Part shown: positions 10,086 through 62,514 of the stretch, piece after piece
Layout of the letters: each line of letters starts with the position of its first letter
Numbering within the stretch: position 1 is the stretch's first letter
Assembly (NCBI GenBank): GCA_041659805.1
Contig: JBAZXP010000001.1
Span: 800,141 to 864,140, forward strand
Origin: Microgenomates group bacterium
Lineage (GTDB): Bacteria; Patescibacteriota; Microgenomatia; Daviesbacterales; UBA10151
Length of the DNA: 64,000 nucleotides
Reading direction: 5' to 3'
The notes under the pieces: generated by a model
Seen by the model: only the letters and a program-made list of their open reading frames with translations
Told to the model about the DNA's origin: nothing
Databases searched by the model: none
Program-made: the position numbers and the translations under genes

Positions 10086-10102
10086 GACCTAAAGTAAAAG
10101 TA

Positions 10103-11626: not shown

Positions 11627-11671
11627 TCAATTGCTGTTTTTTAAATTCTCAGGTTTTGTTATAGTAAAAAT

Positions 11672-12025: not shown

Positions 12026-12058
12026 ACATGCCTATAGTGTGCTAGAATTCCTGTCTAT

Positions 12059-12655: not shown

Positions 12656-12672
12656 AAGTATTTAAGAAATAA

Positions 12673-13452: not shown

Positions 13453-13620
13453 ATTTTTAGTTAAGAAGTTGAGGCAGAGGATTAGATATAGGTAAGTTTA
13501 AACTCCTTGGTGGGATTATATAACATCCACTTATATTTATATAAGTATAAAGAGTCTGTAATTATTTCTATTTTAGTCTCAAATTGTACAAATTTTAGTA
13601 CCCACACGTAGGTACTATTT

Positions 13621-16524
13621 TTAGCTCTTTCTATCCTCTGGAAAACCGCTTTTAGATGTAACTATATTTTTACTATTTGAATGCTTTTCATTGCTAACTT
13701 CACTTAGATTGTTAGTAACTTTTTGATATTTGATTGCCCAGTTTTTTCTTGAAGCCTCAATTAATTTTTCAATCTTTTTAGAATTTTTATCTACAGGTAT
13801 AAATATTGTTTCACCAGAAAAAGGTTCCTCCGATTCAATTGCGGAAATTTTAATATAAAAGCGATATCTTGGAAGATTCATAATCGCACCTTTTTCCAAG
13901 TAAGGGCTGAACTGATTTAGCATTAACTCCTCGTCAACATAATTACCGCTTCTGAAACTAATAACTGTGGTGACATTGGCAAGAATAATATTTGTAATAT
14001 CCCTGTCTTTTTGCTGGGAGGTGGATTGTTCTGCAATTATTAAAGGCATTTTATATTTTCTTCCCTCAGTAACCATTTTGGTAAATGAGGGGGTAGCAAA
14101 AGTTTGAAATTCATCAACATATAAATAGAAACTTTTTCTTTTGTTTTGTGGAATGTACGCTCTTTTTAATGCTGCTTGTTGAAGTTTGGTCATAATGGTT
14201 GTACCCATTAATCTTGAAGAATCTTCTCCTAATTTTCCCTGTGAGAAATTACAAATTAAAATTTTTCCTTGATTAATAATGTCATCAAAGTTTATTGTTG
14301 ATTTTGACTGTTCAAGGATTCTTTTAGCAGTTGGGGAGCGCATAAACCTTCCGACTTTTGCTGTTACACCCTGTGTCATTTTTACAACCTGAAAGTCTCC
14401 GGCTTTGCCAAATTCGTATTTCCAAAAATCAACCAAGTCTTCATCTTTTAATCGGCTAATTACATTTTTTCTAAAAGTAGGATTTGTTAAAATTTTATTG
14501 ATAGTAAATAAGGTGCATTCTTCGATTGTAAATGCAGTATAAATAGTATTTCGTAAAATATATTCAATCCTATGGGCATTGGTACTTTCGTCTTTAGAAA
14601 AAACTTTTCTAAACAGGGAAATTACACCTTCAGCGACTACTTCTTTTTCTAACTCTGCATCTTCCTCGTCTAATCCTCGAGTGAGTTCCAATAAATTAAT
14701 TCCTATTGGATACTTTAAATCAATGGGGTTAACATAAATTAGATCATCCTTTCTACTTAAGGGAATTGATGCAACCAGATCTTCTGCCACATCTCCATGC
14801 GGATCAATAAAAGCTAAACCTCTACCTTCTTCGATATCGTGTTTAGCCATTGAAAACATTAAGGTTGTTTTTCCACTTCCAGTTCTTCCCAAAATATACA
14901 TATGGGTTTGTCTTTCTTCCTCTGTTAGCCCAATATCCGTAGTTGTCCCTCCGTATGTATTTTTTCCGAAGATGACATTTAATTTTGTATCTTTTTTTAG
15001 AGACAAAGGAGCTGGTAGCTCTTTGCTGTAAAGTTTTACAATATCTTCTGTTTTTGTTGTATCAGTGTAAGGAAAATGATAAAAATCCGAGAGTTCAGAA
15101 ATAGAAAGAATGGGGTTTTTATTAAAAACGCTACTATGCGACAGTATTCTTCTTTTAAATTGGTCTAACCGCTGCCTTATTACTAATGGAGAAGGGAATA
15201 AACTTCTTTTCGTATTAATCGACTGGAAGGCTGTATTCATAACACCAAAGGATGCCATAAGGCCAGAGACCCTGCTTTTAAGCTCTTCTGAATCCTTTGT
15301 TATAACAAGCATTCGTATTGATGTTTCAAACAAAGGCTGGTCTATTTTTTCTTTTACAGTTATTTGTAACTCCTGTTCGTAAGGATTTAGCGTTTCTTGT
15401 GTGGAAGCAGCATCCATCGCCTCAGAAGCCATTAAAAAAGGAATCGCTTTACCGTTTGGATCCATAAAACCCAAAAGCATGCTATAGACAAACATCCAAA
15501 AAAATTTAAAAATCGACCATACTCCTTTGATAAATATTGCAATGATTGAAACTCCTGGTAATTCAGCAATCTTTTGTAAAATGTTTTGGTTTAACAGGGG
15601 CGTAAGCGGTTGTCTTTGGTACATACTCTTCCTTAAACCATTCATACTGCTTACAATATTTTTATGAGTATTCGACAAGACAGGAGTTGTCACTATTTGA
15701 AATGATATAAGCTCATTATCTTTTAGCTTTGTCATGTTACCAGTCAAATAAGAAATCGGATCGTGTTCTTCGAGCACTTTTTGTTTAGAAAGAGGCAAGG
15801 CAAAGGTTGATGCTAGTTTAAACTCAACAATACCTTGATATATTTTGTCTTGTGGGTTATCTTCTATATAATCTTCTACCTCTACAATCCTTATACCTGG
15901 CAAATAAGATAAAAGGCTCCTCTTAATAACATTGGCATTTTTTATATCTGTTACAAGAATATATCTAATCCCTTGATTCTTGGTTGAAATAATTTCCAGG
16001 CTAAATACTTTTTTATTTTTTAATAATCGTTCACTAAAACTTTGTTGCCTGGCAAGGCTATGTAGTAGCGTGTAAAGCTGTTGAGTAGCATATGCTGATT
16101 TACTAGTATCAGACGGAAAGGTTAATTCAAGAAAAACCTTGTTTGGTTTAGGAATAAATTTTGAAAAAAGAAACGGGGATAGTGTTTGAAAGAGTGAAGC
16201 CAAAATCTTCGTAAAAATCAAAAGAATAGCTATGCTTAAAATAAGAGTTACCGGCCAAAATATGATTAAAATACTGACGGCTACAGGTTGCGCGCCAAAT
16301 AATCCCGTAACAGACGAGCTTGAAGCAGTAAGTGCATTATACATATCCAGTCTCGATTGAAGTGGAAAGAGTGACTCAGGTAATGGAAATTTAAGCAGGA
16401 AGCCTAAAATAAGAGCATTTATAAAAGGCATTTGCTGGTTTTGTATCTGCTGGAGCAACTGCAATTGCTGGACATCAACTGCGTTGTGGGGAATAAATGT
16501 CGGCAATGGCGTTTGATTTGTCAT
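13621..16524 (-). CDS. TraD/VirD4/TraG-like type IV coupling protein (FtsK/HerA-superfamily ATPase) with N-terminal transmembrane segments
   Basis: Walker A YILGRTGSGKTTLMF followed by FIDPHGD. Walker B SFYLYVDEFQTFAT...RKYKMPLIIAEQS. Several N-terminal hydrophobic helices. The protein is 967 aa. Confidence 0.7.
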   Translation of the reverse strand: MTNQTPLPTFIPHNAVDVQQLQLLQQIQNQQMPFINALILGFLLKFPLPESLFPLQSRLDMYNALTASSSSVTGLFGAQPVAVSILIIFWPVTLILSIAILLIFTKILASLFQTLSPFLFSKFIPKPNKVFLELTFPSDTSKSAYATQQLYTLLHSLARQQSFSERLLKNKKVFSLEIISTKNQGIRYILVTDIKNANVIKRSLLSYLPGIRIVEVEDYIEDNPQDKIYQGIVEFKLASTFALPLSKQKVLEEHDPISYLTGNMTKLKDNELISFQIVTTPVLSNTHKNIVSSMNGLRKSMYQRQPLTPLLNQNILQKIAELPGVSIIAIFIKGVWSIFKFFWMFVYSMLLGFMDPNGKAIPFLMASEAMDAASTQETLNPYEQELQITVKEKIDQPLFETSIRMLVITKDSEELKSRVSGLMASFGVMNTAFQSINTKRSLFPSPLVIRQRLDQFKRRILSHSSVFNKNPILSISELSDFYHFPYTDTTKTEDIVKLYSKELPAPLSLKKDTKLNVIFGKNTYGGTTTDIGLTEEERQTHMYILGRTGSGKTTLMFSMAKHDIEEGRGLAFIDPHGDVAEDLVASIPLSRKDDLIYVNPIDLKYPIGINLLELTRGLDEEDAELEKEVVAEGVISLFRKVFSKDESTNAHRIEYILRNTIYTAFTIEECTLFTINKILTNPTFRKNVISRLKDEDLVDFWKYEFGKAGDFQVVKMTQGVTAKVGRFMRSPTAKRILEQSKSTINFDDIINQGKILICNFSQGKLGEDSSRLMGTTIMTKLQQAALKRAYIPQNKRKSFYLYVDEFQTFATPSFTKMVTEGRKYKMPLIIAEQSTSQQKDRDITNIILANVTTVISFRSGNYVDEELMLNQFSPYLEKGAIMNLPRYRFYIKISAIESEEPFSGETIFIPVDKNSKKIEKLIEASRKNWAIKYQKVTNNLSEVSNEKHSNSKNIVTSKSGFPEDRKS

Positions 16525-16615
16525 AACTTCCAGGCAGAAGTAATCAAAGTATAGCTAACTTGCAATCTAGCAGATAAAGCTCAGATTTTATATGGCATTT
16601 ATGCCAAATTCCCTC

Positions 16616-16645
16616 TTGACACTGTGTCTAGAAGGATAGTATATT
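16616..16645 (+). promoter_or_regulatory. Sigma-70-like promoter, TTGACA with 18 nt spacing to TATATT, overlapped by two palindromic operator-like sites
   Basis: cttgacactgtgtctagaaggatagtatattatcc. Palindromes GGATAgtatatTATCC and ATTATCCttatagGGATAAT sit just upstream of the small ORF and recombinase. Confidence 0.5.
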
Positions 16646-16666
16646 ATCCTTATAGGGATAATAATT

Positions 16667-16837
16667 ATGGCAAGACTGAAAGGTAGTAAGAATAAAAATT
16701 CCGAAGAAAGAATCACAACCTCTAGCTTGTCACTTCAGGAAAGACTGCGCTTTATTGCTAACCTGATCATAGAAAAAGCCTTAGAAGATCAGAAAAACGG
16801 CAAGGTTTTAATTAGAAAGATCTATGAGTCTAAGTAA
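16667..16837 (+). CDS. Small basic protein (56 aa) immediately upstream of, and overlapping, the serine recombinase start. Candidate recombination directionality factor or regulator.
   Basis: Manual translation gives MARLKGSKNKNSEERITTSSLSLQERLRFIANLIIEKALEDQKNGKVLIRKIYESK*. It overlaps the recombinase ATG by 14 nt and lies downstream of a strong promoter-like site. Confidence 0.35.
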   Translation: MARLKGSKNKNSEERITTSSLSLQERLRFIANLIIEKALEDQKNGKVLIRKIYESK

Positions 16838-18548
16838 CATTCCTAAAATTGAGAACGCGGTTGCTGCAATAAGAGTTTCTTCAACCCAGCAAGGTACTGA
16901 TGGTGATTCCCCTGAAGCACAGAAAGAGCAGATAGAAAGATTTGCCGCTAACCATAACTTTAACGTCAAAAAGATCTTTGTTTTCATGGAGTCAGCGTCC
17001 AAAGAGCAACAACCCATGCAAGAAGCAATTGACTACTGTAAAAATCCTAAAAATGATATTCAGCAATTTATCATTAAATCTATAGATAGATTTACCAGAG
17101 GTGGTTCTTACTCATACGACCATCTTAAAATGCAGCTGGAAAAATATGAAGTCAACTTAGTAGATATTTATGGGGTCATCAGTTCTCACAAAGTGAACAC
17201 TTTAGAGCACTTGGGAGTTTCGTTTAATTGGAGCGTTTACTCTCCTACTAAGAAAAGTGAACTATTGGAGGCTGAAAGAGCTAAAGACGAGATGCGGGAT
17301 ATCATGTCTAGAATGATCGGGGCTGAAATTCGCTATGCCAGAATGGGCTATTGGGTGCGGGAAGCTCCCATTGGATATGTTGTTGAAAAGATTGAAACAC
17401 CAAACGGTAAAAGATGTATTTTAAAACCTCATCCTATTGAATCCTCATGGATTATCAAAATGTTTGAATTAAGATGCAGGGGAACTTTAGGAGATCATCA
17501 AATAGTTGATGAGATAAACAAGCTAGGCTTTAAAACAAGAATAGATTATGTCAGAGACCAGCACGACAGAACTAAAATTATTAAGGAACATGGAGGTCAT
17601 AAGCTGGATATTAAAGGCTTCTGGAGGTATATTCAAAATCCTGTTTATGCCGGAGTCAGTGCAGAGAAGTGGACGGAAGGCCATAGAGTTAAAGGGAAAT
17701 ATGAAGGATTAGTTTCAATTGATACTTTCAATAAAGCAAATAAGGGGAAAGTTATTATTTCTGAAGAGGATGGTCAAATTAAACTTTATAGGAAGCAACC
17801 AGAAGAATGGAGGATCAAAAAAGGAGTAAGAAATCCGGATTTTCCATATAAACGGGTTGTATTATGTCCTCATTGCAAAAGACCGTTATACGGCAGTGCT
17901 TCTAGAGGTAGACTAGGCAAGTACTACCCTGCATATCACTGTAGTAAAGAAGGCCACAACTTTAGGGTTCCTAAGAAAGACTTTGAAGAAGCAATAATTA
18001 AATTTGTTAAAAATATAAATTTAGCACCAGGTTATATAGATGAGTTAGTTAAATCTGTAACCGAAGAATGGGACAAAAGACAGAAGGAAATCACTAAGGA
18101 TACTACCAATTATGATGAAAGAATCACTCAGCTAAAAACCCAAGTTAAGATGACAATTGATAAAATTAAATTTCTCACTTCTGAAGTGGCTATTAGATAT
18201 ATGGAGCAAGACTTAGTTAAAGCAGAAGAAGAAATAGCTCAACTTATGATCGACAAGCAAAAGGCTGATCAGGAAAAACCAGTAGATGCCAATATTATTA
18301 TGGCGTATATAAAATATTATCTAGAGCACATGGACGAATTATTGTTAGATAATAATTCAGATCCCATATTTAAGGCTAATTGTTTTGGAGTGCTTTTTGA
18401 TAAGGCTCCAACCTATACGGAAATAAACAATTTTACTTCTGGAAAAATAGATTCTGGAACACCTGATTTAGCAAGTTGTATCGCTCTAAACGAGGCCTTC
18501 ATTAGATCTCAAGGGAAGCTGGCTGCGGGACATGGATTCGAACCATGA
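16824..18548 (+). CDS. Large serine recombinase (integrase)
   Basis: Catalytic motif AAIRVSSTQQG and DRFTRGG (resolvase domain). Recombinase domain and Zn ribbon CPHCKRPLYGSASRGRLGKYYPAYHC. Coiled-coil C-terminus. The 3' end overlaps tRNA-Gln. Confidence 0.85.
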   Translation: MSLSNIPKIENAVAAIRVSSTQQGTDGDSPEAQKEQIERFAANHNFNVKKIFVFMESASKEQQPMQEAIDYCKNPKNDIQQFIIKSIDRFTRGGSYSYDHLKMQLEKYEVNLVDIYGVISSHKVNTLEHLGVSFNWSVYSPTKKSELLEAERAKDEMRDIMSRMIGAEIRYARMGYWVREAPIGYVVEKIETPNGKRCILKPHPIESSWIIKMFELRCRGTLGDHQIVDEINKLGFKTRIDYVRDQHDRTKIIKEHGGHKLDIKGFWRYIQNPVYAGVSAEKWTEGHRVKGKYEGLVSIDTFNKANKGKVIISEEDGQIKLYRKQPEEWRIKKGVRNPDFPYKRVVLCPHCKRPLYGSASRGRLGKYYPAYHCSKEGHNFRVPKKDFEEAIIKFVKNINLAPGYIDELVKSVTEEWDKRQKEITKDTTNYDERITQLKTQVKMTIDKIKFLTSEVAIRYMEQDLVKAEEEIAQLMIDKQKADQEKPVDANIIMAYIKYYLEHMDELLLDNNSDPIFKANCFGVLFDKAPTYTEINNFTSGKIDSGTPDLASCIALNEAFIRSQGKLAAGHGFEP

Positions 18549-18593
18549 TAAACAGATCCAAAGTCTGTTGTCCTACCATTAGACGATCCCGCA
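18520..18593 (-). tRNA. tRNA-Gln (anticodon UUG), CCA encoded
   Basis: Manual fold: acceptor UGCGGGA/UCCCGCA with U1:A72, anticodon stem ACAGA/UCUGU, loop CUUUGGA, T-arm CAUGG-UUCGAAU-CCAUG, discriminator G then CCA. It overlaps the recombinase 3' end by about 26 nt. Confidence 0.75.
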
Positions 18594-32381: not shown

Positions 32382-33899
32382 CTATCCAATACTGTTTCTT
32401 TTTTCTGCAGCGCGTTGCATTAAATCTCCGATTTCATTATCCCCGGATGACAAACGGTTATAAATTTTTCTTACAATATCAAAATGTTCCTGTTCTTTAT
32501 CTGTTTCAGGTCCCAAAGGTTGATCCAAGTACTCTTCTATAAGGGAAACATCCTTCAAAACACGTTCCCAGCCCGATGATATGATGCCCAGCCTTCTTAA
32601 ATTCTCTTTGTTTAAAAATTTTCCCGCATGTATCAAATCTTTCTTTAAATTTATATAAGTATTTTCAATCAGGTCTAACTTACCGGATTTTTTTGCTTCA
32701 GATAAACCACGTCCTGTTCCGATAAGTTCAGGGGGCACACCGATACTATATTGGGCAGCAGTAAATCCGATAGCTCGCGGAAGAACTACTCCACTAACAC
32801 CTCTTGAATATCCGAATAGTCCAACGTGTTGCAATCTTTCGCGGCGTGTGGGAACAAAACGCGCAACAGCATTTACTAAAGGAGCAATAGTTTCCACTAC
32901 TCCTCTATAATTTAATTCAAACACCGAACTTATCGATTTTAAGCCTGATAAATCTGCAGAATCGATTAACCGTGCTGATTCTTTTGGTAGTAGTTCCTCT
33001 AATTTTCTAATTCCATCGGAAACTGTTTTTGTATCCCAATCATAACGAAAAGCACTTTGAATTAATGCAGTTGAAACTCCTTTATATTCAGAAGCAAAAT
33101 CTTCCACAACATCAGGCCTCAGACTTCCTCTAAAAGGCAACGAACCTGTACCTATAATCGGATATAAGTTAATTCCGGTTTCATTTTCAAATTTCTCATA
33201 ATCAGATAAAGCAATTTTTGCCGCCAAAAGCGTAGGAACTAAACCGGAATTAAGGGCAGGATCTGATCGGGCAATAAACGGCCGGATATAATCAGGCTTA
33301 AAACCAAATCTTTCCTGATGCAACTTTACGTAATCCTCTAAGATTTTTGCGGATATTGAAATAGTTTCTGCCTGTTCAAAAAGTGGAATCAATTGAATAT
33401 GTTTTAGTGTTGCATCCTGGAACCTTAATAAGGGACTCTTTAAGTTTGACATCTCTGAAAAAGCATCCTGAACCGCAATCATTTCTTCAGCAGTTTCTGT
33501 CATAGGAAGGATAACTTCAAATAGTGGTGGCTTTGTCAGATTAAATTGATTGCTTAAAACCGATGAACTTAAAATACCCATCAGAGCCCGTCCTAATCGG
33601 AATTCAGTTTCCACCTTTGGATTCGGTAATCTGTAAGTTAAAAACTTCTTATCACCTAACGGATTTTTAGCAAAAAAATCGCTGTAAGAAGTATAAAGCT
33701 GCTCCATGTGGTCTTCAGCCACATATTTTCCTTCCCAGTCCAGCATACATTCTCCAACACCCAAATCAGAGAACATAACATAAAGCTCTTTTATCTCATC
33801 CTGACGTCCAACAAAGGTATCATTGTGCCAAAAAGGAATACCTGCATTATCAGGATGTTGACTGGCCATAACCGGTGATATTATTCTTTCTTGATCCAT
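32382..33899 (-). CDS. Archaeal-type phosphoenolpyruvate carboxylase
   Basis: N-terminal SPVMASQHPDNAGIP matches the conserved MSTQHPDN motif of atPEPC. The length is about 505 aa. Confidence 0.6.
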   Translation of the reverse strand: MDQERIISPVMASQHPDNAGIPFWHNDTFVGRQDEIKELYVMFSDLGVGECMLDWEGKYVAEDHMEQLYTSYSDFFAKNPLGDKKFLTYRLPNPKVETEFRLGRALMGILSSSVLSNQFNLTKPPLFEVILPMTETAEEMIAVQDAFSEMSNLKSPLLRFQDATLKHIQLIPLFEQAETISISAKILEDYVKLHQERFGFKPDYIRPFIARSDPALNSGLVPTLLAAKIALSDYEKFENETGINLYPIIGTGSLPFRGSLRPDVVEDFASEYKGVSTALIQSAFRYDWDTKTVSDGIRKLEELLPKESARLIDSADLSGLKSISSVFELNYRGVVETIAPLVNAVARFVPTRRERLQHVGLFGYSRGVSGVVLPRAIGFTAAQYSIGVPPELIGTGRGLSEAKKSGKLDLIENTYINLKKDLIHAGKFLNKENLRRLGIISSGWERVLKDVSLIEEYLDQPLGPETDKEQEHFDIVRKIYNRLSSGDNEIGDLMQRAAEKRNSIG

Positions 33900-34342: not shown

Positions 34343-35578
34343 ATGGAAGACAAAAAATTAAAAGATCATAAACAAATAGGGCAAGAACTAGAGTTATTTT
34401 TTACGGATGACATTGCTCCTGGTGCGCCTTTTTGGCTGCCAAAAGGAATGGTTATTTTCAAAGAACTGGAAAAATATATCCGCAAGCTTACGCTGGACGC
34501 CGGATACTTAGAAACATCTACCCCGATCATGGTTAAAAATGATATTTTCAAACAATCTGGTCACTTTGCTAAATTTGGTGCCCATAATATGTACAACTTG
34601 GAACTCTCAGATGATGAAAATTCCAAACCAGTTGGATATACTTTAAAACCTATGAATTGCCCTGAATCAACAATTCTTTACAGATTCAGACCAAGATCTT
34701 ACAAAGAACTACCTTTAAGACTTTCAGAAATAGGAAGGCTTCACAGAAAAGAAAAGTCAGGAGAAGTAAATGGATTACTTCGAGTCAGGCAAATTACCAT
34801 GGATGACGCTCATATTTACGCCAGAGAAAATCAAATCTTTGATGAGGTCTCAAATATCTTGGATATGATGAATGCTTTTTATAAGAATTTCGGATTTGAA
34901 TATGAATTCAGATTTGCTACCCGCCCGGAACAAAGAGCGGGAACTGATGAAATGTGGGATAAAGCAGAAAAAGGTTTGGAAGAAGTACTCAAGAAAAAAG
35001 GGATAAAAGCTTCTGACAAAAAAGGTGATGGAGCCTTTTATGGTCCAAAAATAGACATGCATATTAAAGATGCTTTAGGACGCGAATGGCAGCTGGCAAC
35101 TGTTCAATTGGATTTCCATATGCCTCAGGCTTTTGATTTAAAGTATGTGACAGAAGACGGTAAAATGGAAAAACCGGTCATGATTCACAGAGCAATCTTT
35201 GGATCATTTGAACGTTTTACAGGAATCTTAACTGAACATTTTCAAGGTGCTTTTCCAACCTGGCTTGCACCAATACAAGTACAAATTGTACCCATTACAG
35301 ACAGAAATAACGACTACGGACAAAAAGTACTCGAACAATTAAAGTCCTCAGAAATCAGAGCTGAGCTGGACGACAGGTCAGAAAAAATGCAGGGAAAAAT
35401 CCGGGATGCCCAAATGCAAAAAATCCCATACATGTTAGTTATAGGTGACAGAGAAGAAAAGGATGAAAAGGTAGCAGTCAGAACCAGGGATGGAAAAGAT
35501 TTGGGAGTACTTACAATCAATGAATTCAAAGAACTGGTTCTGGACAAGATAAGCAAAAAATCTATAGAATTATCTTAA
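34343..35578 (+). CDS. thrS: Threonine--tRNA ligase, truncated form. Catalytic core plus anticodon-binding domain, lacking the N-terminal TGS/editing domains.
   Basis: DHKQIGQELELFF...PGAPFWLPKGMVIFKELEKYIR...TPIMVKNDIFKQSGHFAKF, a class II aaRS ThrRS core. Confidence 0.8.
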   Translation: MEDKKLKDHKQIGQELELFFTDDIAPGAPFWLPKGMVIFKELEKYIRKLTLDAGYLETSTPIMVKNDIFKQSGHFAKFGAHNMYNLELSDDENSKPVGYTLKPMNCPESTILYRFRPRSYKELPLRLSEIGRLHRKEKSGEVNGLLRVRQITMDDAHIYARENQIFDEVSNILDMMNAFYKNFGFEYEFRFATRPEQRAGTDEMWDKAEKGLEEVLKKKGIKASDKKGDGAFYGPKIDMHIKDALGREWQLATVQLDFHMPQAFDLKYVTEDGKMEKPVMIHRAIFGSFERFTGILTEHFQGAFPTWLAPIQVQIVPITDRNNDYGQKVLEQLKSSEIRAELDDRSEKMQGKIRDAQMQKIPYMLVIGDREEKDEKVAVRTRDGKDLGVLTINEFKELVLDKISKKSIELS

Positions 35579-40877: not shown

Positions 40878-43406
40878 TTACATATTAACTGTCACACCAA
40901 TTGAGTTGGAAAAAATTCCACCGTTATTATCTTCCAAAGTCACAGTTATAGTATGAGACCCCTTATCTCCATTTGGGAATTCAACATGAAGAGCAAAAGG
41001 CTCAGAAGTTTGAGTTGATTTGGTGCCTCCGTCAATTAACCAGGTTATTTTCTTTACCCCAGCAGGCGAATTTGCTTTGGCAAGAACATCAAAAACTCTT
41101 GGTACATTGGCACCATTTCCGACATTTACTATAGAAATAATTCCTGATCCAGACGGACCGGATGAAAATCCGGGAATATTAGAGCAACCCCGCGCTATCC
41201 CTACAAATCTGGCATCAGGTGCAGTTAAAACCCAATTATCTATGGCTGCTTGCCATTTATTAGCACCAGTCGGATCATTTTCATTAAGCAAAATTACATC
41301 CTTTTCTTCTGTATCTTCACCATCATTGCCGATTCTGTGTGGATTAGTTTTACATACCTTTTGTCGTTGATAAGCACTGGAAACATTTCCAGGCTCGGTA
41401 CCTTTTACATAGTATTCACGGCGAACAGGTGAACCATCTTTGGTTTTTCCGCCCATTAGACCATCAATTTCCATATAAGAAACATCATTAGGCTGATCCT
41501 GTTTTTCATCCTGTTTACCCTTAAGAACTAAGGTCATGATTTTTTGCCAAATCGGAGATGCACCAGTTACTCCTGAGGCAACAACAGGATCCATTTTAGA
41601 ATTATCATTATTTCCAACCCAAACACCCACTGTATAAGAAGGGGTATAGCCGATTGTCCAATTATCCCGTTTTTCATCTGTGGTTCCTGTTTTAACAGAA
41701 ACTGTTTTACCGGAAATATTTAAATTGGAAACTGAGCCAAAGGCAGCGGTTCTTGCTCCGTTATCAGCCAAAATATTGGAAATAATAAAAGCAATTCCAG
41801 GTTCCAAAACCTTTGTTCCATCATCAGGTTTATATTCATATAAAACTTTTCCTTTATAATCAGTTACTTTTAAGATTGAAACAGGTTCATGTTTTACTCC
41901 CTGGTTGCCGAAAACCCCGTAAGCAGAGGTTAAATCCAAAAGACGAACCTCACGTCCTCCTAAAGTTAAGGACAAACCGGCATTTAATACATTCTCTTCT
42001 GTTGGCTCCCAAGTAGTTAAGCCCATTCGGTAACCTAAATCCATTACATTTTTAACACCAGCTAAAGCTGTCATCTTTACTGCCGGAATATTATAGGAAT
42101 TGCCCAAAGCATATCTGACCTGCACCGGTCCATGGAATTGTCCGTCATAATTAAGTGGAATATAGGCTGCTCTGTTGGCACCACCAGGAAATTCAGTCTT
42201 AACATCCATTAAAACAGAAGCTGCGGTATATCCTTTTTGCATGCCTGCAGAATAGGTAATCGGCTTGGTGGCAGAACCAGGTTGTCTGGGAGCAAGTGCT
42301 ACATTTACATTGCCGTCATAGTCTGTGGCAAAATAATCTTTTGAACCGATCATAGCTAAAATTTTTCCTGTTTTTGGTTCAAGCACGACTGCGGCGCCAT
42401 TTCCGACTTTAGCTCCTTTTAATTTATCAACTTCTGTTTTAACTATTGCCTGAGCATCCTCCTGTAACTTGTTGTCTAAAGTGGTTGTGACTTGTAATCC
42501 TCCTTGCTCAACCATCTTGTCGCCAAATTGCTCAATAAGTTTTTCTTTTACATACAGAACAAAGTGTGGTGCCTTAAAACCTATTTCTTTTTGTGCTGTT
42601 CTGTAGGTTAATTGTTCGTTTTTAGCTGCATCTGCTTGAGCCAAAGTAATATAACCATCACTAACCATTCTGCCTAGAACTTCTGCCTGACGAGTTTTAG
42701 CCAATTCAGGGTGTGAGCCATAAGGAGAATAAACAGAAGGACGTTGTGGAAGCCCAGCCAAAAGAGAGCTTTCAGCTAAATTCAAATCTTTGGCATGTTT
42801 ACCAAAATAAAGATTAGCAGCAGATTCAATACCATAAGCAGTTCCGCCAAAAGGAATTTCATTCAAATACATTTCCAGAATCTGATCTTTTGTATAAACG
42901 CGCTCAACCTGAACAGCCAGAATAAATTCTTTAATCTTCCTGATAAAAGAAACTTCGTTGGAAAGAAGGGCATTTTTAACCAGTTGCTGTGTTAAGGTTG
43001 AACCTCCTCCTTCAATCTGACGATGGGCTACTATATCGAAAGCAGAACGGGCGATACCGATAGGAGAGAATCCTTGATGTTTGTAAAAGTCTTTATCCTC
43101 AATTGCTATTGTTGCTTGTTTTACAGAATCTGGAATTTCTGATAATTTTATTGAAGTGCGGTTCTGATTTTGAAAAATATCATATAATAACTCTCCTTTG
43201 CTATCATAGATTTTTGTGGATTGGGCAATCGTGCGATTAGTTAATTCTTCCGGTGAAGGAACCTGGGTTGAGAAATAAACTATGATGCCTATTAAGAGCA
43301 ATGTTCCGACCAAAAGTAGAGTTAGAACTGAGGTTGAAAATCTTGACAGTAGTTTAGTTTTATTAAAGGATCCTGTTGTATAACGTTGAATTCTTTTAAA
43401 AGCCAT
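40878..43406 (-). CDS. Class A penicillin-binding protein (bifunctional transglycosylase/transpeptidase) with a C-terminal beta-rich extension
   Basis: GT51 motifs IAIEDKDFYKHQGF and GGSTLTQQLVKN. Transpeptidase SxxK in PGSATKP. N-terminal TM anchor. Confidence 0.85.
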   Translation of the reverse strand: MAFKRIQRYTTGSFNKTKLLSRFSTSVLTLLLVGTLLLIGIIVYFSTQVPSPEELTNRTIAQSTKIYDSKGELLYDIFQNQNRTSIKLSEIPDSVKQATIAIEDKDFYKHQGFSPIGIARSAFDIVAHRQIEGGGSTLTQQLVKNALLSNEVSFIRKIKEFILAVQVERVYTKDQILEMYLNEIPFGGTAYGIESAANLYFGKHAKDLNLAESSLLAGLPQRPSVYSPYGSHPELAKTRQAEVLGRMVSDGYITLAQADAAKNEQLTYRTAQKEIGFKAPHFVLYVKEKLIEQFGDKMVEQGGLQVTTTLDNKLQEDAQAIVKTEVDKLKGAKVGNGAAVVLEPKTGKILAMIGSKDYFATDYDGNVNVALAPRQPGSATKPITYSAGMQKGYTAASVLMDVKTEFPGGANRAAYIPLNYDGQFHGPVQVRYALGNSYNIPAVKMTALAGVKNVMDLGYRMGLTTWEPTEENVLNAGLSLTLGGREVRLLDLTSAYGVFGNQGVKHEPVSILKVTDYKGKVLYEYKPDDGTKVLEPGIAFIISNILADNGARTAAFGSVSNLNISGKTVSVKTGTTDEKRDNWTIGYTPSYTVGVWVGNNDNSKMDPVVASGVTGASPIWQKIMTLVLKGKQDEKQDQPNDVSYMEIDGLMGGKTKDGSPVRREYYVKGTEPGNVSSAYQRQKVCKTNPHRIGNDGEDTEEKDVILLNENDPTGANKWQAAIDNWVLTAPDARFVGIARGCSNIPGFSSGPSGSGIISIVNVGNGANVPRVFDVLAKANSPAGVKKITWLIDGGTKSTQTSEPFALHVEFPNGDKGSHTITVTLEDNNGGIFSNSIGVTVNM

Positions 43407-43460
43407 AATGATATTATACCAATTGCTAGAGTCAAGCTCAACTTGTTATAATACACGTAA

Positions 43461-43533
43461 CCATGGGTGGCCGACCGGTTGAGGCGACAGTCTGTAAAAC
43501 TGTTTTAAGTAGGTTCGACTCCTACCCCATGGA
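43461..43533 (+). tRNA. tRNA-Tyr (anticodon GUA) of archaeal/eukaryal type: C1:G72 pair and a short 5-nt variable loop
   Basis: Acceptor CCAUGGG/CCCAUGG, perfect. Anticodon stem ACAGU/ACUGU, loop CUGUAAA. T-arm GUAGG-UUCGACU-CCUAC. Discriminator A. Confidence 0.7.
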
Positions 43534-43580
43534 CAAGACGAGTTTGCTTTATACCCCTAAACAGCCTATAATATACGGCT

Positions 43581-46494: not shown

Positions 46495-47067
46495 ATGAAA
46501 TTAAATACCCAAAAAACCCTAGAGCAATTAAAACCAGTCTTAATTAGCTCTAAATCCGAAGGTCCAGATCCTGTATATTTTGTTTTTCAAGAAATTAAAG
46601 ATAAAAAGTGGTCGAACATTACAATTATTCAAAACGGGAAAATCGGAATTGAGTACCCAAAAACTTTTGGTCATTATCATTCTGTAAATGTGAATGAAAC
46701 ATACCATGTCGTAGCAGGTAAAGGAGTCTTACAGTTGATGAAAAAACATATGGAAGGAGATAAATGGGATCCATCTAAAGTTGATGAGGTTTATTTGGTC
46801 AGAATCAAAGAGGGTGATGATGTTATTATTACTCCAGAATATGGTCACGGTTTATCTAACACAGGCGATTTCCCTTTAATTACTTTTGACAACTGGACTG
46901 TAGGTCACCCAGCTTCGGATTATGAAGAGATAGAAAAGCATCATGGATTAGCATATTACTTAACAGAAGAAAATGGTAAACCAAAAGCAATTCCAAACCC
47001 AAATTATAGATATTCACCAGAGCCAATTTGGATAACTGCAGAAGAATTTGCAAATCTTAAATCTTAA
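46495..47067 (+). CDS. Cupin-type (archaeal-type) glucose-6-phosphate isomerase
   Basis: About 190 aa, as in Pyrococcus cPGI. Metal-binding motif TFGHYHS...ETYHVVAGKGVLQL and a later GH in PEYGHGLSNTG. Confidence 0.5.
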   Translation: MKLNTQKTLEQLKPVLISSKSEGPDPVYFVFQEIKDKKWSNITIIQNGKIGIEYPKTFGHYHSVNVNETYHVVAGKGVLQLMKKHMEGDKWDPSKVDEVYLVRIKEGDDVIITPEYGHGLSNTGDFPLITFDNWTVGHPASDYEEIEKHHGLAYYLTEENGKPKAIPNPNYRYSPEPIWITAEEFANLKS

Positions 47068-47076: not shown

Positions 47077-47487
47077 CTATCTTACTCTGTGTCTTCTTTT
47101 AACCTTAAGTTGTGCTATTGCCTTTTCTAGTGCAGCAGTAGTTGTGGCAAGCTCTTCATCTGATAATTTTTGCTCCAAAGCGGCAGTCGCTCTTTTTCTG
47201 GCTTCTTCTGCTGATTTTTCATCAATTTCCTCAGCCTTTTCTGCCATATCTGTCGTTATAATCACATTATTATTGGCAACCTGCAGCAGACCAAATCCCA
47301 CTGCCATAATAATTTCCTTATTCCCTTGAGTAACTCTAACTTCACCAGGTAAAACCTGAGTCATTAAACTAATATGTTCTGGTAAAATCCCAATTTCACC
47401 ACTATCTGTGGTTGCTACAACTTCTGATACTTCATCATCAAAAATATCTTTTTCAGGAGTCACAATTTTTAAATGTAGTTTACTCAT
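47077..47487 (-). CDS. atpC: F1Fo ATP synthase epsilon subunit, located 5.6 kb away from the rest of the atp operon
   Basis: MSKLHLKIVTPEKDIFDDEV...GILPEH...AALEKAIAQLKV matches F1 epsilon. Confidence 0.8.
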   Translation of the reverse strand: MSKLHLKIVTPEKDIFDDEVSEVVATTDSGEIGILPEHISLMTQVLPGEVRVTQGNKEIIMAVGFGLLQVANNNVIITTDMAEKAEEIDEKSAEEARKRATAALEQKLSDEELATTTAALEKAIAQLKVKRRHRVR

Positions 47488-47517
47488 ACCAGATGATTTT
47501 AACACAAAGAAGGGGAG

Positions 47518-48207
47518 TTAAGGAATAAGAATTTCTACTTTTTTACAATCTGGTTTTAATTTTTCAACAACCTCTGCATTATAATTAATTCTCTTGTCTA
47601 AAAGAATGCCACCAATCATTTCAAGCAACCAATCATCATTTCTGAACCTACTCCCATCAAATGCCCGTTCTGTAAGACCTATAAAAGGATTCCATCTTAA
47701 AGCCTCTTCTTCATGCTCTCCAGGCAATCTAAAATGCTTACCACCTAAAATTTCCATAAAAGCCTTAATACCATCAGCACCTATACTCCCAATCCTTTCC
47801 ATTAATTCAAACGGCAATGAACAACTATGAATGGCTGATTCTAGCAAACCATTCTTCCATAAACCAAACTGCCCGCATCCTTCTCCATGATGGACAGCGC
47901 CGTGCGTACCAGGAGTAAAACCCAATCTCCTTAGATCTTCAGCTGCATGCATAAAACCATTCCAATCACCACCTGTTTTCAGTGCACAAATTGCATTTAC
48001 ACCACCAAAAATAGCTGGACCATACTTTTTACGATTAGGAAGTATGCCAAATCTGCCGTCGCCGCATTCTGCAGCTGCACCTTCATCTGTGGGAACAAGA
48101 TCAACATTCGATACCTTAACTTGCTCAGTTTTCCACCCACGCTCAGCAAGAACGTCGCCGATAATAAAAGGATCAAAACCAGGACTTTTAATTAATTCTA
48201 TTGCCAT
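47518..48207 (-). CDS. Hypothetical protein (229 aa)
   Basis: ORF only, GHGAVHHGEGCGQFG segment. Confidence 0.4.
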   Translation of the reverse strand: MAIELIKSPGFDPFIIGDVLAERGWKTEQVKVSNVDLVPTDEGAAAECGDGRFGILPNRKKYGPAIFGGVNAICALKTGGDWNGFMHAAEDLRRLGFTPGTHGAVHHGEGCGQFGLWKNGLLESAIHSCSLPFELMERIGSIGADGIKAFMEILGGKHFRLPGEHEEEALRWNPFIGLTERAFDGSRFRNDDWLLEMIGGILLDKRINYNAEVVEKLKPDCKKVEILIP

Positions 48208-48263: not shown

Positions 48264-48668
48264 TTGCAAGTTTTTTCAAAGTATAGTACTATACTAGATT
48301 GTATGCCAGATCATAATTGTGATGCTCTAATAATTACTTGTATAGATTTTAGGTTCCAGAAATATATTAATGACTGGGTATCGGAAAATTTTCAGCCAAA
48401 AACTTTTGATAGAGTAGCTATTGCTGGTGGTGTTTTTGATCTTGATTACGTGCTAAAACAGGCTGAAATCTCACATAGATTACATCATGTTAAGAAAATA
48501 ATTCTGATAAATCATGAAGATTGTGGAGCCTATGGAGAAGCAGGAACAGTAAAAAAACATGCAGAAGATTTAAAAGCTGCGGGAGAAGAATTTAAAAAAT
48601 TATATCCTGAAATGGAAATTAAAAGTTACTATCTTCATCTTGATGGAAACTTTGAAGATATCTCTTAA
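48264..48668 (+). CDS. Hypothetical protein with beta-carbonic-anhydrase-like CxDxR / HxxC motifs (short, 134 aa)
   Basis: ITCIDFRFQ and INHEDCGAYGEAG. Shorter than typical beta-CA. Confidence 0.3.
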   Translation: MQVFSKYSTILDCMPDHNCDALIITCIDFRFQKYINDWVSENFQPKTFDRVAIAGGVFDLDYVLKQAEISHRLHHVKKIILINHEDCGAYGEAGTVKKHAEDLKAAGEEFKKLYPEMEIKSYYLHLDGNFEDIS

Positions 48669-53084: not shown

Positions 53085-55357
<2,273 letters not shown>

Positions 55358-55358
55358 A

Positions 55359-56015
55359 TCAACCTACTTTCGGGGCTAAAAACCCCACAACTTTTACTAA
55401 ATCGTTTTTAGTTTCAGATACTATTTTTAATACCTCATCCATATATTGCCTTAAATCTTCATCAGCAAAAGCACTCACAAAAATATAAAAAGGATGATCT
55501 TTAGAAAAGCCAAAGTCCTGATCTTTAGTTCTTTTTCCGATACCTTTATTACCCATCACAATCTCCATCAACATCTTTATATTTGAGGCAAAATCTTCCG
55601 AATTATCATATTTTTTTCTGTTTACAACAAACTGGTCTACAGGCAAAACACTCTCAGGGGTATCATTTCTGTGACCTGTACCATCAACTAATATACAAAC
55701 CGCAGGTGAAAAATGACTTGAAGCTTCTATTTTTCCTGTATCGTGTAAGTTTTCCAGTAATTTAGGTAAGGTTTGAGAGTCTATCTCACCCAGATATCTA
55801 ATGAGCGGGGGCTCAATTGAATCTTCCTTAATGCGGTAATTATCAGGATTAATTTTTTGAACAAATTCACCGGATAATAACGTATCAACTATGTCTTCTT
55901 TTTGAAAATACTTATCAAGAGAAACTAAAATAGGGAGGTCTAATCTTTTATTCCAGGAATCTCTTTTCTCAATCTCTTCCGGATCCAGTATATCTTGCAC
56001 AAACGTATCAGGCAT
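55359..56015 (-). CDS. Hypothetical protein (218 aa) inserted between atpA and atpG
   Basis: Tightly packed: 6-nt gap to atpA, 1-nt gap to atpG. Contains an HD-like LHDTGK segment but lacks the full HD motif set. Confidence 0.5.
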   Translation of the reverse strand: MPDTFVQDILDPEEIEKRDSWNKRLDLPILVSLDKYFQKEDIVDTLLSGEFVQKINPDNYRIKEDSIEPPLIRYLGEIDSQTLPKLLENLHDTGKIEASSHFSPAVCILVDGTGHRNDTPESVLPVDQFVVNRKKYDNSEDFASNIKMLMEIVMGNKGIGKRTKDQDFGFSKDHPFYIFVSAFADEDLRQYMDEVLKIVSETKNDLVKVVGFLAPKVG

Positions 56016-56021
56016 AAGGTT

Positions 56022-57524
56022 TTATTTTGGTAGAGTCTTTTTGAAATCATCTACAGCTTTTTTAGTAATTTTTTCTAATTCTTTTACTACTTTTTCATCA
56101 AGCACTTTTGAATCTTCGATTTCTTTAAGCAAATTCTTTTCTTTTAGTCTAAAATTTTGAATATAAGCGTTTTCAAATTCCTTAATTTTTTCAACTGGTA
56201 ACTCATCCAAATAACCATTTATTGCTGCCCACAAAGAAACAACTTGTTCTTCCAAAGGCGATGGATTATATGGAGGTTGTTTTAAAATCTCGGTAATCCG
56301 TTGGCCTCTTTCAATTTGAGCCTTAGTGGCTGGATCCAAGTCTGATGAAAATTGAGCGAAAGCAGCCAATTCTCTAAATTGAGCTAAATCTAGCTTCAAT
56401 TTCCCTGCAACAGCTTTCATTGCCTTCGTTTGAGCAGCTCCACCCACACGGGAAACAGAAATACCAACGTTTAGAGCTGGCCTTATGCCTGCATAAAATA
56501 AGTCAGGCTCCAAATATATTTGACCATCTGTAATAGAAATAACATTAGTTGGAATATAAGCAGAAACATCCCCAGCCTGAGTTTCAATAATAGGCAAGGC
56601 TGTCAGTGATCCTCCGCCAGATTCCTTATTCATTCTGGCAGCTCTCTCAAGTAGCCTTGAATGAAGATAGAACACATCACCAGGATATGCTTCACGACCA
56701 GAGGGTCGTCTTAAAAGAAGGGAAACTTGTCTATAAGCCCAGGCATGTTTGGATAAATCATCATAAACAATTAAAGCGTCTTGCCCTTTACTCATAAAAT
56801 ATTCACCCATTGCACAGCCTGTATATGGAGCTAAATATTGCATTGGGGCTGGATCAGAGGAAGAGGCAACCACCACAATCGTATGCTCCATAGCTCCGTT
56901 TTCTTCCAGTTTGGCAACAAGTTGAGCAATTTTGGATGCTTTTTGGCCCACAGCTACATAAATACAAATAATATCTTTTTGATTGATGATGGTGTCTATC
57001 GCAATAGTTGTTTTACCTGTGTTTCTGTCTCCGATAATAAGCTCTCTTTGACCTCGCCCAATTGGAATAAGAGCATCAATTGCTTTAATTCCTGTTTGAA
57101 CAGGTTGAGTAACTGATTGTCTGGTAATAACACCAGAGGCTACTTTTTCTACAGGGTTGGTGGTTTTTGTTTTGATTGGACCTTTACCGTCTACTGGATT
57201 ACCCAATGCGTCAACTACACGACCTATAAGTTCTTCTCCAACAGGAACTTGGAGTAATTTACCAGTTGTTTTAACTGTGTCACCTTCGGAAACTGCAGTA
57301 AAATCGCCCAAAATCATGGCTCCGACTGTATATTGTTCCAAATTTAAGGCAAGTCCCATCACACCAGACCCAAAATCAATCATTTCTGTTGATTGAACAT
57401 TAGACAAACCTTCAATCCTGGCAATTCCATCTCCACATTCAATAACAGTTCCTACATTTTCCCTAGTAGCTTTTGTTTGCATGCCGGAAATTTCTTTTTG
57501 AATACTATCTAATATGTCAGCCAT
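56022..57524 (-). CDS. atpA: F1Fo ATP synthase alpha subunit
   Basis: [19 protein letters not shown]. Confidence 0.95.
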
Positions 57525-57912
57525 TAATCATTCCTTTCATTTGTTCAATTTTATTTTTTACAGTGTCATCAAAGACAACATCCCCAATTTTAATACGCAG
57601 GCCACCTAAAAGTGAAGAGTCTAAAACTGTTTTAACTGAGGTAATATAAAATGTTTTTCTAGCAACAGCAGTGATCTTTTTTTCCTCAGCAGATGAAAGT
57701 TTAGTTGGACTAGCAATCTCTAAAGCAGTTTTATTGATTTCTCTTTTTAAACCCCTTTGGTAAAGAGTCAAAGCCTGAATGGCATCTGTTGAAGGAAGTT
57801 TTTTTAAAGTTTTGATATTCTCGTTAATTTTTACGTCTTTGAGTTCGCCTTTTGGTGAAAAGCTATCAATAACTAATTTTTCTATTAAATTTTTTAATCT
57901 TTTATTAACCAT
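57517..57912 (-). CDS. atpH: F1Fo ATP synthase delta subunit (short form, 131 aa)
   Basis: C-terminal [24 protein letters not shown], an OSCP motif. Confidence 0.7.
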
Positions 57913-58409
57913 TATTTTTCAAACCCCTTTAAAGCACTTTTAGAAAGCTCCTCTTTATCTTTAGCTGATAATACTTTGCTGGCAGTTTTTTCAAGTCCTA
58001 AAGCTACTAAATCAGCTATCTCTGATCTTATTTCCATGTGAAGTTTTTCCCGTTCCAGAGCCATCTGTTCTTCAGACTTGGCAATCATTTTTTTAGTTTG
58101 CTCCAAGGCTTTTTCATGAGATTCAGCAATAATCTGATTAGCAGATTTCATTGCCTCATCAATCACTTTTTTGGATTCCTTGGCAGCAGCCTCCAGTTTT
58201 TTATCCCGGTCTTCAATGATTTGAGCCAGCTTTTTCTCAATTTCTTCTGCATTAGCCAACCCTTCTGCAATTTTTTCTTTTCTTTCTTCCAAAATCTTTA
58301 AAATAGGTTTATAAAGAAACTTCTTAAGTATCAAAAGAAGAATAATGAAATTAACTATTTGTGCTAATAGAAGTATGGGTTTTATCCCAAATTGATCTAA
58401 TATTTCCAT
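57912..58409 (-). CDS. atpF: F1Fo ATP synthase subunit b
   Basis: Single N-terminal TM followed by a long charged coiled coil. Confidence 0.75.
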   Translation of the reverse strand: MEILDQFGIKPILLLAQIVNFIILLLILKKFLYKPILKILEERKEKIAEGLANAEEIEKKLAQIIEDRDKKLEAAAKESKKVIDEAMKSANQIIAESHEKALEQTKKMIAKSEEQMALEREKLHMEIRSEIADLVALGLEKTASKVLSAKDKEELSKSALKGFEK

Positions 58410-58494
58410 ATTTTGATTAGTTCACAGTTAGTTAGTTCATAGTTCACAGTAAATAATTACAACAAACCAAGTAACCAACTAACCAAGAACTTTT

Positions 58495-59480
<986 letters not shown>

Positions 59481-61389: not shown

Positions 61390-62514
61390 ATGACAACAGA
61401 CGAGAAAATTAAATTAATCACCAGAAACCTGGAAGAATGCTTGACTGAAGAAGAATTAAAAGAATTGATTGAATCAGGAATATCCTTAAAACACTATATT
61501 GGTTTTGAAATTTCAGGAAAAGTTCATCTTGGACAAGGGATTGCTGTGATGAATAAGGTAAGAGAAATGCATGATGCTGGTGCAGAAACTGTTATCTGGC
61601 TAGCAGACTGGCATGGATGGATCAATAACAAATTAGATGGAACTTTAGAGACTGCCAGCAGGATGGCAAAAGAATATTTCACAGAAGCTATGAAAGCAGC
61701 TTATCTTTGTGTTGGAGGAAATCCTGATGATTTAGTTTTTAAGCAGGGGAGTGAGATTTATAATAGTCATCCTGAATTTTGGGCAACAACTATTAAAGTT
61801 GCCAAAGCCACTACAATTTCCAGAATGATGAGATCAACAGATATTATGGGCAGAACTGCAGGAGAATCATCCAACACAGCCACTCTTTTTTACCCAGCTA
61901 TGCAGGCAGCAGATATTTTTCAACTAGAAGTAAACATTGCCCATGCCGGAACAGATCAAAGAAATGTTCATATTGTTGCCAGAGATGCTGCAAAAGAAAT
62001 TGGATTCAAAAAACCAATCGCCATCCATCACCATTTAATCATGGGACTAAAACCCTTAGGGGATAGTGACGATATTCAAGCAAAGAAAAATATGTCTTAT
62101 GAAGAAAAAAAAGAAATTATTACAGCCTTAAAAATGAGTAAATCAAAACCCGATACTGCTGTTTTTATTACAGATTCACCTGAAGAAATTAAGAAAAAGA
62201 TAAATAACGCTTATTGCCCGGAGGGAGACATAGAATTCAATCCTATTCTTGATTGGACAAAGCATTTAATCTTTTACAATGAAGGAGTAACTTTAGAAAT
62301 TGAAAGGCCTGAAAAATTCGGTGGAAATGTAACTTATTCTTCTTATGAGGATTTAGAAAAAAACTTTACAGAAAAAAAACTTCATCCCATGGATTTAAAA
62401 GCTGCAGTTGCTAGTTGGTTGATTAGAAAATTAGAACCTGCCAGAAAACATTTTGAAGACCCTAAAAGGAAAGCAGCTTTAGAAGAGATTGAGAAATTAA
62501 TTGTAAGAAAATAA
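61390..62514 (+). CDS. tyrS: Tyrosine--tRNA ligase, archaeal/eukaryal type
   Basis: YIGFEISGKVHLGQ (HIGH region), KMSKSKP, DSPEEIKKKINNAYCPEG and IERPEKFGGNVTYSSYEDLEKNFTEKKLHPMDLKAAVASWLIRKLEPARK are all close to Methanocaldococcus-type TyrRS. The length is 374 aa. Confidence 0.8.
   Translation: MTTDEKIKLITRNLEECLTEEELKELIESGISLKHYIGFEISGKVHLGQGIAVMNKVREMHDAGAETVIWLADWHGWINNKLDGTLETASRMAKEYFTEAMKAAYLCVGGNPDDLVFKQGSEIYNSHPEFWATTIKVAKATTISRMMRSTDIMGRTAGESSNTATLFYPAMQAADIFQLEVNIAHAGTDQRNVHIVARDAAKEIGFKKPIAIHHHLIMGLKPLGDSDDIQAKKNMSYEEKKEIITALKMSKSKPDTAVFITDSPEEIKKKINNAYCPEGDIEFNPILDWTKHLIFYNEGVTLEIERPEKFGGNVTYSSYEDLEKNFTEKKLHPMDLKAAVASWLIRKLEPARKHFEDPKRKAALEEIEKLIVRK

Follow-up and report, generated by a model that had tools for sequence, protein, structure and literature searches.

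The 64,000-nucleotide stretch analysed here (hereafter the window; positions 800,141 to 864,140 of the forward strand of contig JBAZXP010000001.1, assembly GCA_041659805.1 of a Microgenomates group bacterium) encodes a tRNA-Tyr with the anticodon GUA (43461..43533, + strand) and a tyrosyl-tRNA synthetase (TyrRS; tyrS, 61390..62514, + strand). Together, these very probably constitute a functional tyrosine-charging pair of archaeal/eukaryal type in a Daviesbacteria-like Microgenomates bacterium from the Candidate Phyla Radiation (CPR). The sequence features of both genes, their conservation, their bacterial context and their clade-wide inheritance are directly observed. An initial annotation of the DNA had proposed that a bacterium carries a matched archaeal identity set, and this proposal is supported by the C1:G72 pairing and the short variable loop of the tRNA, by the C1-reading residues Arg191 and Arg148 of the enzyme and by the lack of an S4 domain. 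An archaeal-type tyrosine pair in this bacterial group has been published before. Mukai, Reynolds, Crnković and Söll (2017, Life 7:8; PMC5370408) described archaea/eukarya-type TyrRSs and C1-G72 tRNA-Tyr in CPR bacteria, among them Microgenomates (OP11), and their tree counts Daviesbacteria among the major groups of bacterial TyrRSs. They distinguished forms of the tRNA with and without a variable arm (V-arm), the V-arm being kept in CPR tRNAs ‘in many cases’, and concluded that several CPR lineages took the gene from archaea independently. Because that paper already made the point for this group, the window represents one more confirmed example.

ARAGORN calls the tRNA gene as tRNA-Tyr(gta) at 43461-43534 (+ strand), one of nine tRNA genes in the window, and Rfam model RF00005 scores positions 43461-43533 at 56.4 bits (gathering score 29), with 51-73 bits for the other eight. 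Read from the DNA, the tRNA is CCAUGGG-UG-GCC-GACCGGUUGA-GGC-G-ACAGU-CUGUAAA-ACUGU, continued by UUUAA-GUAGG-UUCGACU-CCUAC-CCCAUGG-A. The 5' strand of the acceptor stem, CCAUGGG (43461..43467, + strand; C1 at 43461), pairs with the 3' strand CCCAUGG, which together with the discriminator A73 (43533) occupies 43526..43533 (+ strand; G72 at 43532). All seven pairs (C1:G72, C2:G71, A3:U70, U4:A69, G5:C68, G6:C67 and G7:C66) are Watson-Crick. The D stem comprises three pairs and a G13·A22 apposition, and the anticodon GUA (GTA in the DNA; 43494..43496, + strand) lies inside the loop CUGUAAA with A36-A37-A38. The variable loop UUUAA (43504..43508, + strand) counts 5 nt in the sequence and in the family alignment and replaces a bacterial variable arm of 13-21 nt; the molecule is a class I tRNA. 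The CCA end is not encoded, the bases 3' of A73 being CAAG. The minimum-free-energy fold of the RNA is the same cloverleaf; ARAGORN, Rfam, direct reading and computed fold thus agree on the tRNA-Tyr(GUA) with C1:G72 and a 5-nt variable loop that the initial annotation had described, and its worry that a covariance model might yield another fold or anticodon is answered by the agreement of ARAGORN and Rfam on GUA. Upstream, a consensus scan finds a sigma-70-like promoter match (43423..43452, + strand; TTGCTA, an 18-nt spacer and TG-n-TATAAT; 10/12 positions with an extended -10 TG) that ends 8 nt 5' of the tRNA, as a consensus match that does not by itself prove function. No Rfam family other than tRNA, T-box included, is present in the window.

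The 374-residue enzyme matches NCBIfam NF006330 (PRK08560), a model for archaeal-type TyrRS, with 410.9 bits (cut-off 220) over profile positions 1-338 of 342, while its score against the bacterial tyrS model TIGR00234, 111.9 bits, stays under the cut-off of that model (113.8). PF00579, a class Ic catalytic family, is the sole Pfam domain at E ≤ 1 and no S4 domain is found. The C-terminal end consists of anticodon-binding helices that align with the C-terminus of M. jannaschii TyrRS. A TyrRS that has no S4-like domain has nothing to read a long variable arm with, and the tRNA has no such arm. The best matches among solved structures are P. horikoshii 2cyc (E 1e-101), 7fg6 (6.7e-96) and A. pernix 2cya (1.9e-83), followed in order by Leishmania, A. 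fulgidus, Plasmodium and M. jannaschii 1j1u (1.2e-53), then by the human and yeast enzymes (about 1e-42 to 1e-40) and finally by bacterial T. thermophilus 1h3e (1.7e-10). The archaeal type, which the initial annotation had assigned from the HLGQ and KMSKSKP motifs, is hence upheld by profile, structure matches and domain content. Its description of the enzyme as short does not hold, since the protein corresponds to the long, Pyrococcus-like form of about 375 residues and not to the 306-residue methanogen form. The further statement that the C-terminal region is highly similar to methanogen TyrRS is right insofar as the C-terminal half is the best-aligned stretch with M. jannaschii TyrRS, but identity over the whole protein is 37%.

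The HIGH-type motif HLGQ (residues 46-49; 61525..61536, + strand) aligns with M. jannaschii His42-His45, and the KMSKS motif occupies residues 248-252 (62131..62145, + strand; KMSKSKP from 248). In the M. jannaschii complex, Arg174 reads C1, Lys175 reads G72, Arg132 contacts C1 via water, and Asp286 reads the anticodon base G34 together with Phe261 and His283 (Tsunoda et al. 2007; PMC1934993). We aligned the enzyme to an M. jannaschii reference that is 100% identical to 1j1u_A, which yields Tyr36, Asp175, Arg148, Arg191, Phe310, His332, Asp335 and Lys337 as residues at aligned positions, with Arg174 corresponding to Arg191, Arg132 to Arg148 and Asp286 to Asp335 (codon 62392..62394, + strand). 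Five of the six residues that read C1:G72 and G34 are therefore kept (Arg191, Arg148, Asp335, His332 and Phe310). The sixth, Lys175, is Asn192 (codon 61963-61965; the Arg191-Asn192 codons together span 61960..61965, + strand). The equivalents of Tyr32, Asp158, Arg132, Arg174 and Asp286 are invariant in 120 of the 120 closest homologues, and that of His283 is His in 119 of them. Asn192 is likewise Asn in all 120, which make up the Daviesbacteria-like clade, whereas 26 out of 27 other bacterial TyrRSs that were compared have Lys or Arg at this position, and the P. horikoshii and A. pernix enzymes have Lys.

Compared with known systems, the enzyme is closest in build to P. horikoshii TyrRS (2cyc), with which it shares its length class (375 residues in P. 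horikoshii, 374 here), an insertion of about 30 residues before KMSKS and 49% identity over trimmed columns; the differences are the bacterial host and the Asn in place of Lys. The M. jannaschii pair (1j1u) follows the same logic of C1:G72, A73 and G34 and its Tyr32, Asp158, Arg132, Arg174, Phe261, His283 and Asp286 are all kept, although its enzyme is the minimal form. The two tRNAs differ in the D stem, which counts 4 bp in M. jannaschii tRNA-Tyr but 3 bp plus G13·A22 in the window, and at position 37, which is G in the former and A in the latter. With the canonical bacterial pair (T. thermophilus 1h3e), the window pair has the class Ic Rossmann-fold core, the amino acid and the anticodon in common. 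The bacterial system further has G1:C72 and a long variable arm, the latter bound by an S4-like domain at the C-terminus of the enzyme (PMC1934993), and none of these three traits occurs in the window pair. Finally, nothing essential sets the window apart from the CPR systems of Mukai et al. (PMC5370408), of which it is another genome of the same group, except that its tRNA lacks the V-arm often kept in CPR and that its tRNA and tyrS are separated by 18 kb.

From these sequences we infer that the pair charges tRNA-Tyr with tyrosine and serves as the sole tyrosine system of the cell. The enzyme would act as a class Ic homodimer of the long archaeal form and activate tyrosine by means of its HLGQ and KMSKS motifs and of a pocket with the conserved Tyr36 and Asp175. 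It would read the top of the acceptor stem, i.e., C1:G72 and A73, with Arg191 and Arg148 placed on C1, and the anticodon with Asp335 on G34 and Phe310 and His332 stacking. The tRNA would be transcribed from an ordinary bacterial-looking promoter and receive its CCA end post-transcriptionally. As to the acquisition route, tyrS probably entered the bacterial lineage from archaea long ago and would have been inherited vertically within the Daviesbacteria-like clade since, the tRNA having either arrived with tyrS or been remodelled from the resident bacterial tRNA to fit. We also considered a bacterial ancestry of the tRNA body, because its D stem (3 bp, with G13·A22) and its loop with A36-A37-A38 look like those of long-arm tRNAs of bacteria, but dropped the idea since these features are not diagnostic: yeast cytoplasmic tRNA-Tyr shows the same D-arm pattern and A37.

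Several points weigh against the reading as a working archaeal-type pair. Its function is deduced from sequence, and the view covers 64 kb of a contig of about 1.13 Mb, such that a second, bacterial tyrS or tRNA-Tyr may lie elsewhere. Besides, the distance of 18 kb between the two genes deprives linkage of any value as an argument for co-transfer in this genome, and the clade-wide Asn at the Lys175 position means that details of G72 recognition may differ. The first alternative builds on the limited view: a normal bacterial TyrRS/tRNA-Tyr might exist elsewhere in the genome, with the archaeal-type pair as a second, orthogonal system. We consider this unlikely. CPR genomes are small and seldom keep duplicate synthetases, the catalytic and recognition residues are invariant throughout the clade, and the 64-kb window holds no second class Ic synthetase and no second tRNA-Tyr. 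A precedent for coexistence is found in the operons of TrpRS-A and tRNA-Trp(A73) that stand beside a bacterial pair in Beckwithbacteria (Mukai et al.; PMC5370408), yet it concerns tryptophan and not tyrosine. These Microgenomates operons resemble the present case in that CPR bacteria have taken over an identity set from archaea, and differ in the amino acid, in the joining of tRNA and synthetase in an operon and in the presence of the bacterial pair (PMC5370408). No Trp system lies in the window.

A TyrRS phylogeny, which the initial annotation had put forward as a check, bears on the second alternative, namely that the archaeal-type tyrosine identity is an old vertical trait of the branch of CPR, Chloroflexota and Dormibacterota, or even of the last universal common ancestor (LUCA). 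The 120 nearest homologues are 66-84% identical to the window TyrRS, and the named ones belong to Daviesbacteria, Microgenomates or Patescibacteria. Neighbour-joining trees (Kimura distances, 200 bootstraps, few archaeal references, taxonomy of metagenome-assembled genomes (MAGs) as deposited) place the window enzyme in a Daviesbacteria clade with 100% bootstrap, which in turn falls within a ‘long-form’ group with 96-98% support in which further CPR clades, one clade of Chloroflexota and Dormibacterota, P. horikoshii, 7fg6 and a protein labelled Promethearchaeota are placed as well, and whose backbone is weakly supported (26-74%). WWE3, Pacebacteria, Parcubacteria and V-arm-type sequences stay outside this group. 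On the whole, the trees agree with the published picture of archaeal-type TyrRSs in CPR. Ancestral retention is suggested by the V-arm-less C1:G72 tRNA-Tyr and long-form TyrRS found in CPR, Dormibacterota and Chloroflexota MAGs, by the sister-group relation of these lineages in Coleman et al. (bioRxiv 2020.07.15.205187) and by Mukai et al. (PMC5370408), who raised the LUCA idea. Nonetheless, the archaeal sequences (P. horikoshii and the MAG protein labelled Promethearchaeota) as well as 7fg6 branch in between the bacterial clades, Daviesbacteria and Chloroflexota/Dormibacterota do not come out as sister clades, and WWE3, Pacebacteria, Parcubacteria and the V-arm type branch elsewhere, which makes retention slightly less probable still than an auxiliary pair. 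The interleaved pattern fits several transfers, as concluded by Mukai et al., on a backbone that is weak. A shared derived trait of CPR, Chloroflexota and Dormibacterota was weighed as well and is unlikely, for the trees place archaeal sequences among the bacterial clades, again with weak backbone support. The Promethearchaeota (Asgard)-labelled TyrRS (P0345) is 60% identical to an Anaerolineae enzyme and to P. horikoshii TyrRS; situated beside the Chloroflexota/Dormibacterota clade in the tree, it may derive from a donor lineage or from a mis-binned contig.

The bacterial context of both genes bears on the third alternative, an assembly or binning artefact in which bacterial DNA became fused to an archaeal fragment that carried tyrS, the tRNA or both. 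Directly upstream of the tRNA lies a gene for a class A penicillin-binding protein (PBP1A; 40878..43406, - strand; TIGR02074, 525.7 bits). PBP1A adjoins tRNA-Tyr at 67-73% identity in three Daviesbacteria loci (L034, L094, L102) and in two others (L049, L058), and the order PBP1A–tRNA-Tyr–pheT is repeated in Daviesbacteria MAG loci; the tRNA gene thus occupies a conserved, vertically inherited bacterial locus. Further bacterial genes of the window are the F1Fo ATP synthase operon beside tyrS, bacterial-type pheT and GlmS, as well as MurT/GatD, IF3, L20 and pheS, in accordance with the bacterial genome that the initial annotation had presumed around both genes. The G+C content of the window is even (0.33-0.39). 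The identical TyrRS in NCBI is recorded as ‘MAG: tyrosine--tRNA ligase [Microgenomates group bacterium]’, and an independent Logan assembly (a 37.8-kb contig) repeats the neighbourhood of atp operon, ABC transporter and tyrS. Mutual contamination of CPR and DPANN bins is a known problem (PMC5370408), but here both genes sit between bacterial genes in one contiguous window of uniform G+C, the tyrS neighbourhood recurs in the independent assembly and several Daviesbacteria MAGs show synteny for the neighbours of the tRNA. An explanation by contamination or chimerism is hence untenable, and we regard it as highly improbable.

Selection on the tRNA was assessed by scanning one genome per species with the pattern CTGTAAA-N13-GGTTCGANTCC-N8-GGA, which finds V-arm-less GUA tRNAs ending in G71-G72-A73. 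The scan gives at least 120 matches, and counts refer to the matches listed. Among these, all intact tRNAs start with CC, which the pattern does not demand. When the window tRNA is aligned with 37 distinct relatives (n = 38), the cloverleaf is 99.9% paired with compensatory changes at 14 of 20 pairs, none of 500 shuffles is as good, and pairing drops to about 40% in register-shifted versions. All 38 sequences have C1:G72 and C2:G71. This covariation demonstrates purifying selection on the cloverleaf, and hence the gene is no pseudogene. That it might be a pseudogene or have another identity, e.g., a misfolded or non-tyrosine tRNA, has nothing but its unusual look for a bacterium in its favor and is barely credible given two independent detectors that return GUA, a bit score typical of the tRNAs of this genome, the covariation across 38 relatives and a promoter-like site directly upstream.

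The archaeal-type pair is not confined to CPR. Approximately two-thirds of the tRNAs among the matches listed are non-CPR and come from high-GC loci (0.54-0.72) of Dormibacterota and uncultured Chloroflexota (Dehalococcoidia, Anaerolineae, ‘Chloroflexia’), several of them on contigs of 0.3-3.6 Mb. Their tRNA-Tyr reads CCCAGGGUAGCCAAGUGG…CCCCUGGGACCA and is V-arm-less with C1:G72 and an encoded CCA. In at least 20 high-GC loci, an archaeal-type tyrS that is 45-50% identical to the window TyrRS follows 20-290 nt (typically about 100 nt) downstream of the tRNA on the same strand. Loci with this adjacency include L003, L004, L006, L008, L010, L012, L013, L027, L029, L041, L043, L047, L065, L078, L096, L099, L101 and L105; in L078, for example, the tRNA occupies 2714-2789 (- strand) and tyrS 2614-1499 (- strand). 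Some CPR loci show the adjacency too, at 16-91 nt. Searches with Dormibacterota and Anaerolineae TyrRSs as queries retrieve hundreds of relatives, those with names being Dormibacteria, Anaerolineae, Aggregatilineales, Dehalococcoidia and Chloroflexota. In a literature search that left most subscription journals outside its reach, we found no papers on archaeal-type TyrRS or C1-G72 in Chloroflexota or Dormibacterota, or on the adjacency, and the non-CPR distribution was found neither in Mukai et al. (2017) nor in papers citing it. These observations suggest that tRNA and TyrRS are able to travel as a two-gene unit. It is conceivable, and we put it forward tentatively as somewhat doubtful, that the window pair is a dispersed copy of a self-sufficient ‘tyrosine identity cassette’, in which a V-arm-less C1:G72 tRNA-Tyr stands directly upstream of a long-form archaeal tyrS. 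Such a cassette would pass from one organism to another as a unit and would have displaced the bacterial system far outside the published CPR cases, in Dormibacterota and uncultured Chloroflexota.

Other tRNA-Tyr loci show further peculiarities. Seven Chloroflexota/Dormibacterota loci (L020, L055, L067, L070, L103, L116, L118) contain only the 3' part of a tRNA-Tyr, from anticodon stem to CCA, preceded by unrelated DNA; in L070, the fragment (7541-7583) is located right before the start of tyrS at about 7642. The fragments look like the displaced half of a mobile-element integration site, with an intron-split gene as the alternative. Some third-party-annotated MAGs labelled ‘uncultured Gammaproteobacteria’, ‘Saccharimonadales’, ‘Saccharibacteria’, ‘Binatia’ or ‘Actinomycetes’ carry a tRNA-Tyr/tyrS locus of the CPR type (low GC) or the Dormibacterota type (high GC) and are probably mislabelled or mis-binned (L030, L049, L057, L058, L061, L071, L074, L079, L086, L111; L045, L047, L027). 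The V-arm-bearing C1:G72 tRNA-Tyr was considered as a direct intermediate and set aside, as a metagenome scan for such tRNAs with a sequence close to that of the window tRNA gave a mixed set in which none was shown. One V-arm-bearing tRNA-Tyr (L146) has the same T arm as the window tRNA and an archaeal-type tyrS 1.6 kb away, and many other V-arm C1:G72 matches in metagenomes lie in tRNA arrays, which confirms that the V-arm type exists. A long-arm C1:G72 tRNA-Tyr, CCGGAGG…CCUCCGGACCA, is found at 376-462 of L122, and similar ones occur on the low-GC metagenome contigs L124, L134, L140, L151, L173, L193 and L214; ARAGORN misses some such Tyr genes. Contigs like L122 carry dense tRNA arrays with predicted CUA-anticodon (amber-reading) tRNAs and may come from phages or from cells.

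Some other genes of the window also deserve mention. A threonyl-tRNA synthetase (ThrRS) gene (34343-35578, + strand; 411 residues, TIGR00418 positions 166-562 of 565) is the first of a thrS-infC-rplT-pheS-pheT cluster and its product is devoid of the N-terminal part to which the editing domain belongs; a tRNA-Val 336 nt upstream leaves no room for a much longer protein. Apart from tyrS, the window has a second gene of archaeal type, which encodes phosphoenolpyruvate carboxylase (32382-33899, - strand; TIGR02751 PEPCase_arch, 459.8 bits). Close to each other lie genes with three families uncommon in bacteria: a cupin-type glucose-6-phosphate isomerase (46495-47067, + strand; PF06560, typical of Euryarchaeota), a match to the cadmium carbonic anhydrase repeat (47518-48207, - strand; PF18484, CDCA) and a putative carbonic anhydrase (48264-48668, + strand; PF20393). 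The ATP synthase epsilon gene (47077-47505, - strand) stands apart from the other atp genes (53085-59480, - strand; beta, gamma, alpha, delta, b, c, a), at a distance of about 5.5 kb and with several unrelated genes in between. Finally, the region 288-18593 is a probable integrated mobile element. It comprises serine-recombinase-like genes at 288-1346 and 16824-18548, the latter overlapping with its 3' end an opposite-strand tRNA-Gln (18520-18593), along with a 1605-residue DUF4011/AAA_11/AAA_12/MTES_1575 helicase-nuclease (1371-6188), a PD-(D/E)XK nuclease, a Replic_Relax relaxase-like gene (12673-13452) and a 967-residue TraD-like coupling protein (13621-16524).

Tyrosine tRNA identity has long been seen as a hard line between Bacteria on the one hand and Archaea and Eukarya on the other. 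The same line renders the M. jannaschii pair orthogonal in E. coli, which is the basis of genetic-code expansion. The adjacency of tRNA and tyrS and the abundance of the pair beyond CPR bear on the route by which the bacterial system is replaced, i.e., with a joint arrival of tRNA and enzyme, and on the extent of such replacement. Natural bacteria that stand across the identity line show that the wholesale replacement of an identity set is possible, and they constitute a source of new orthogonal pairs.

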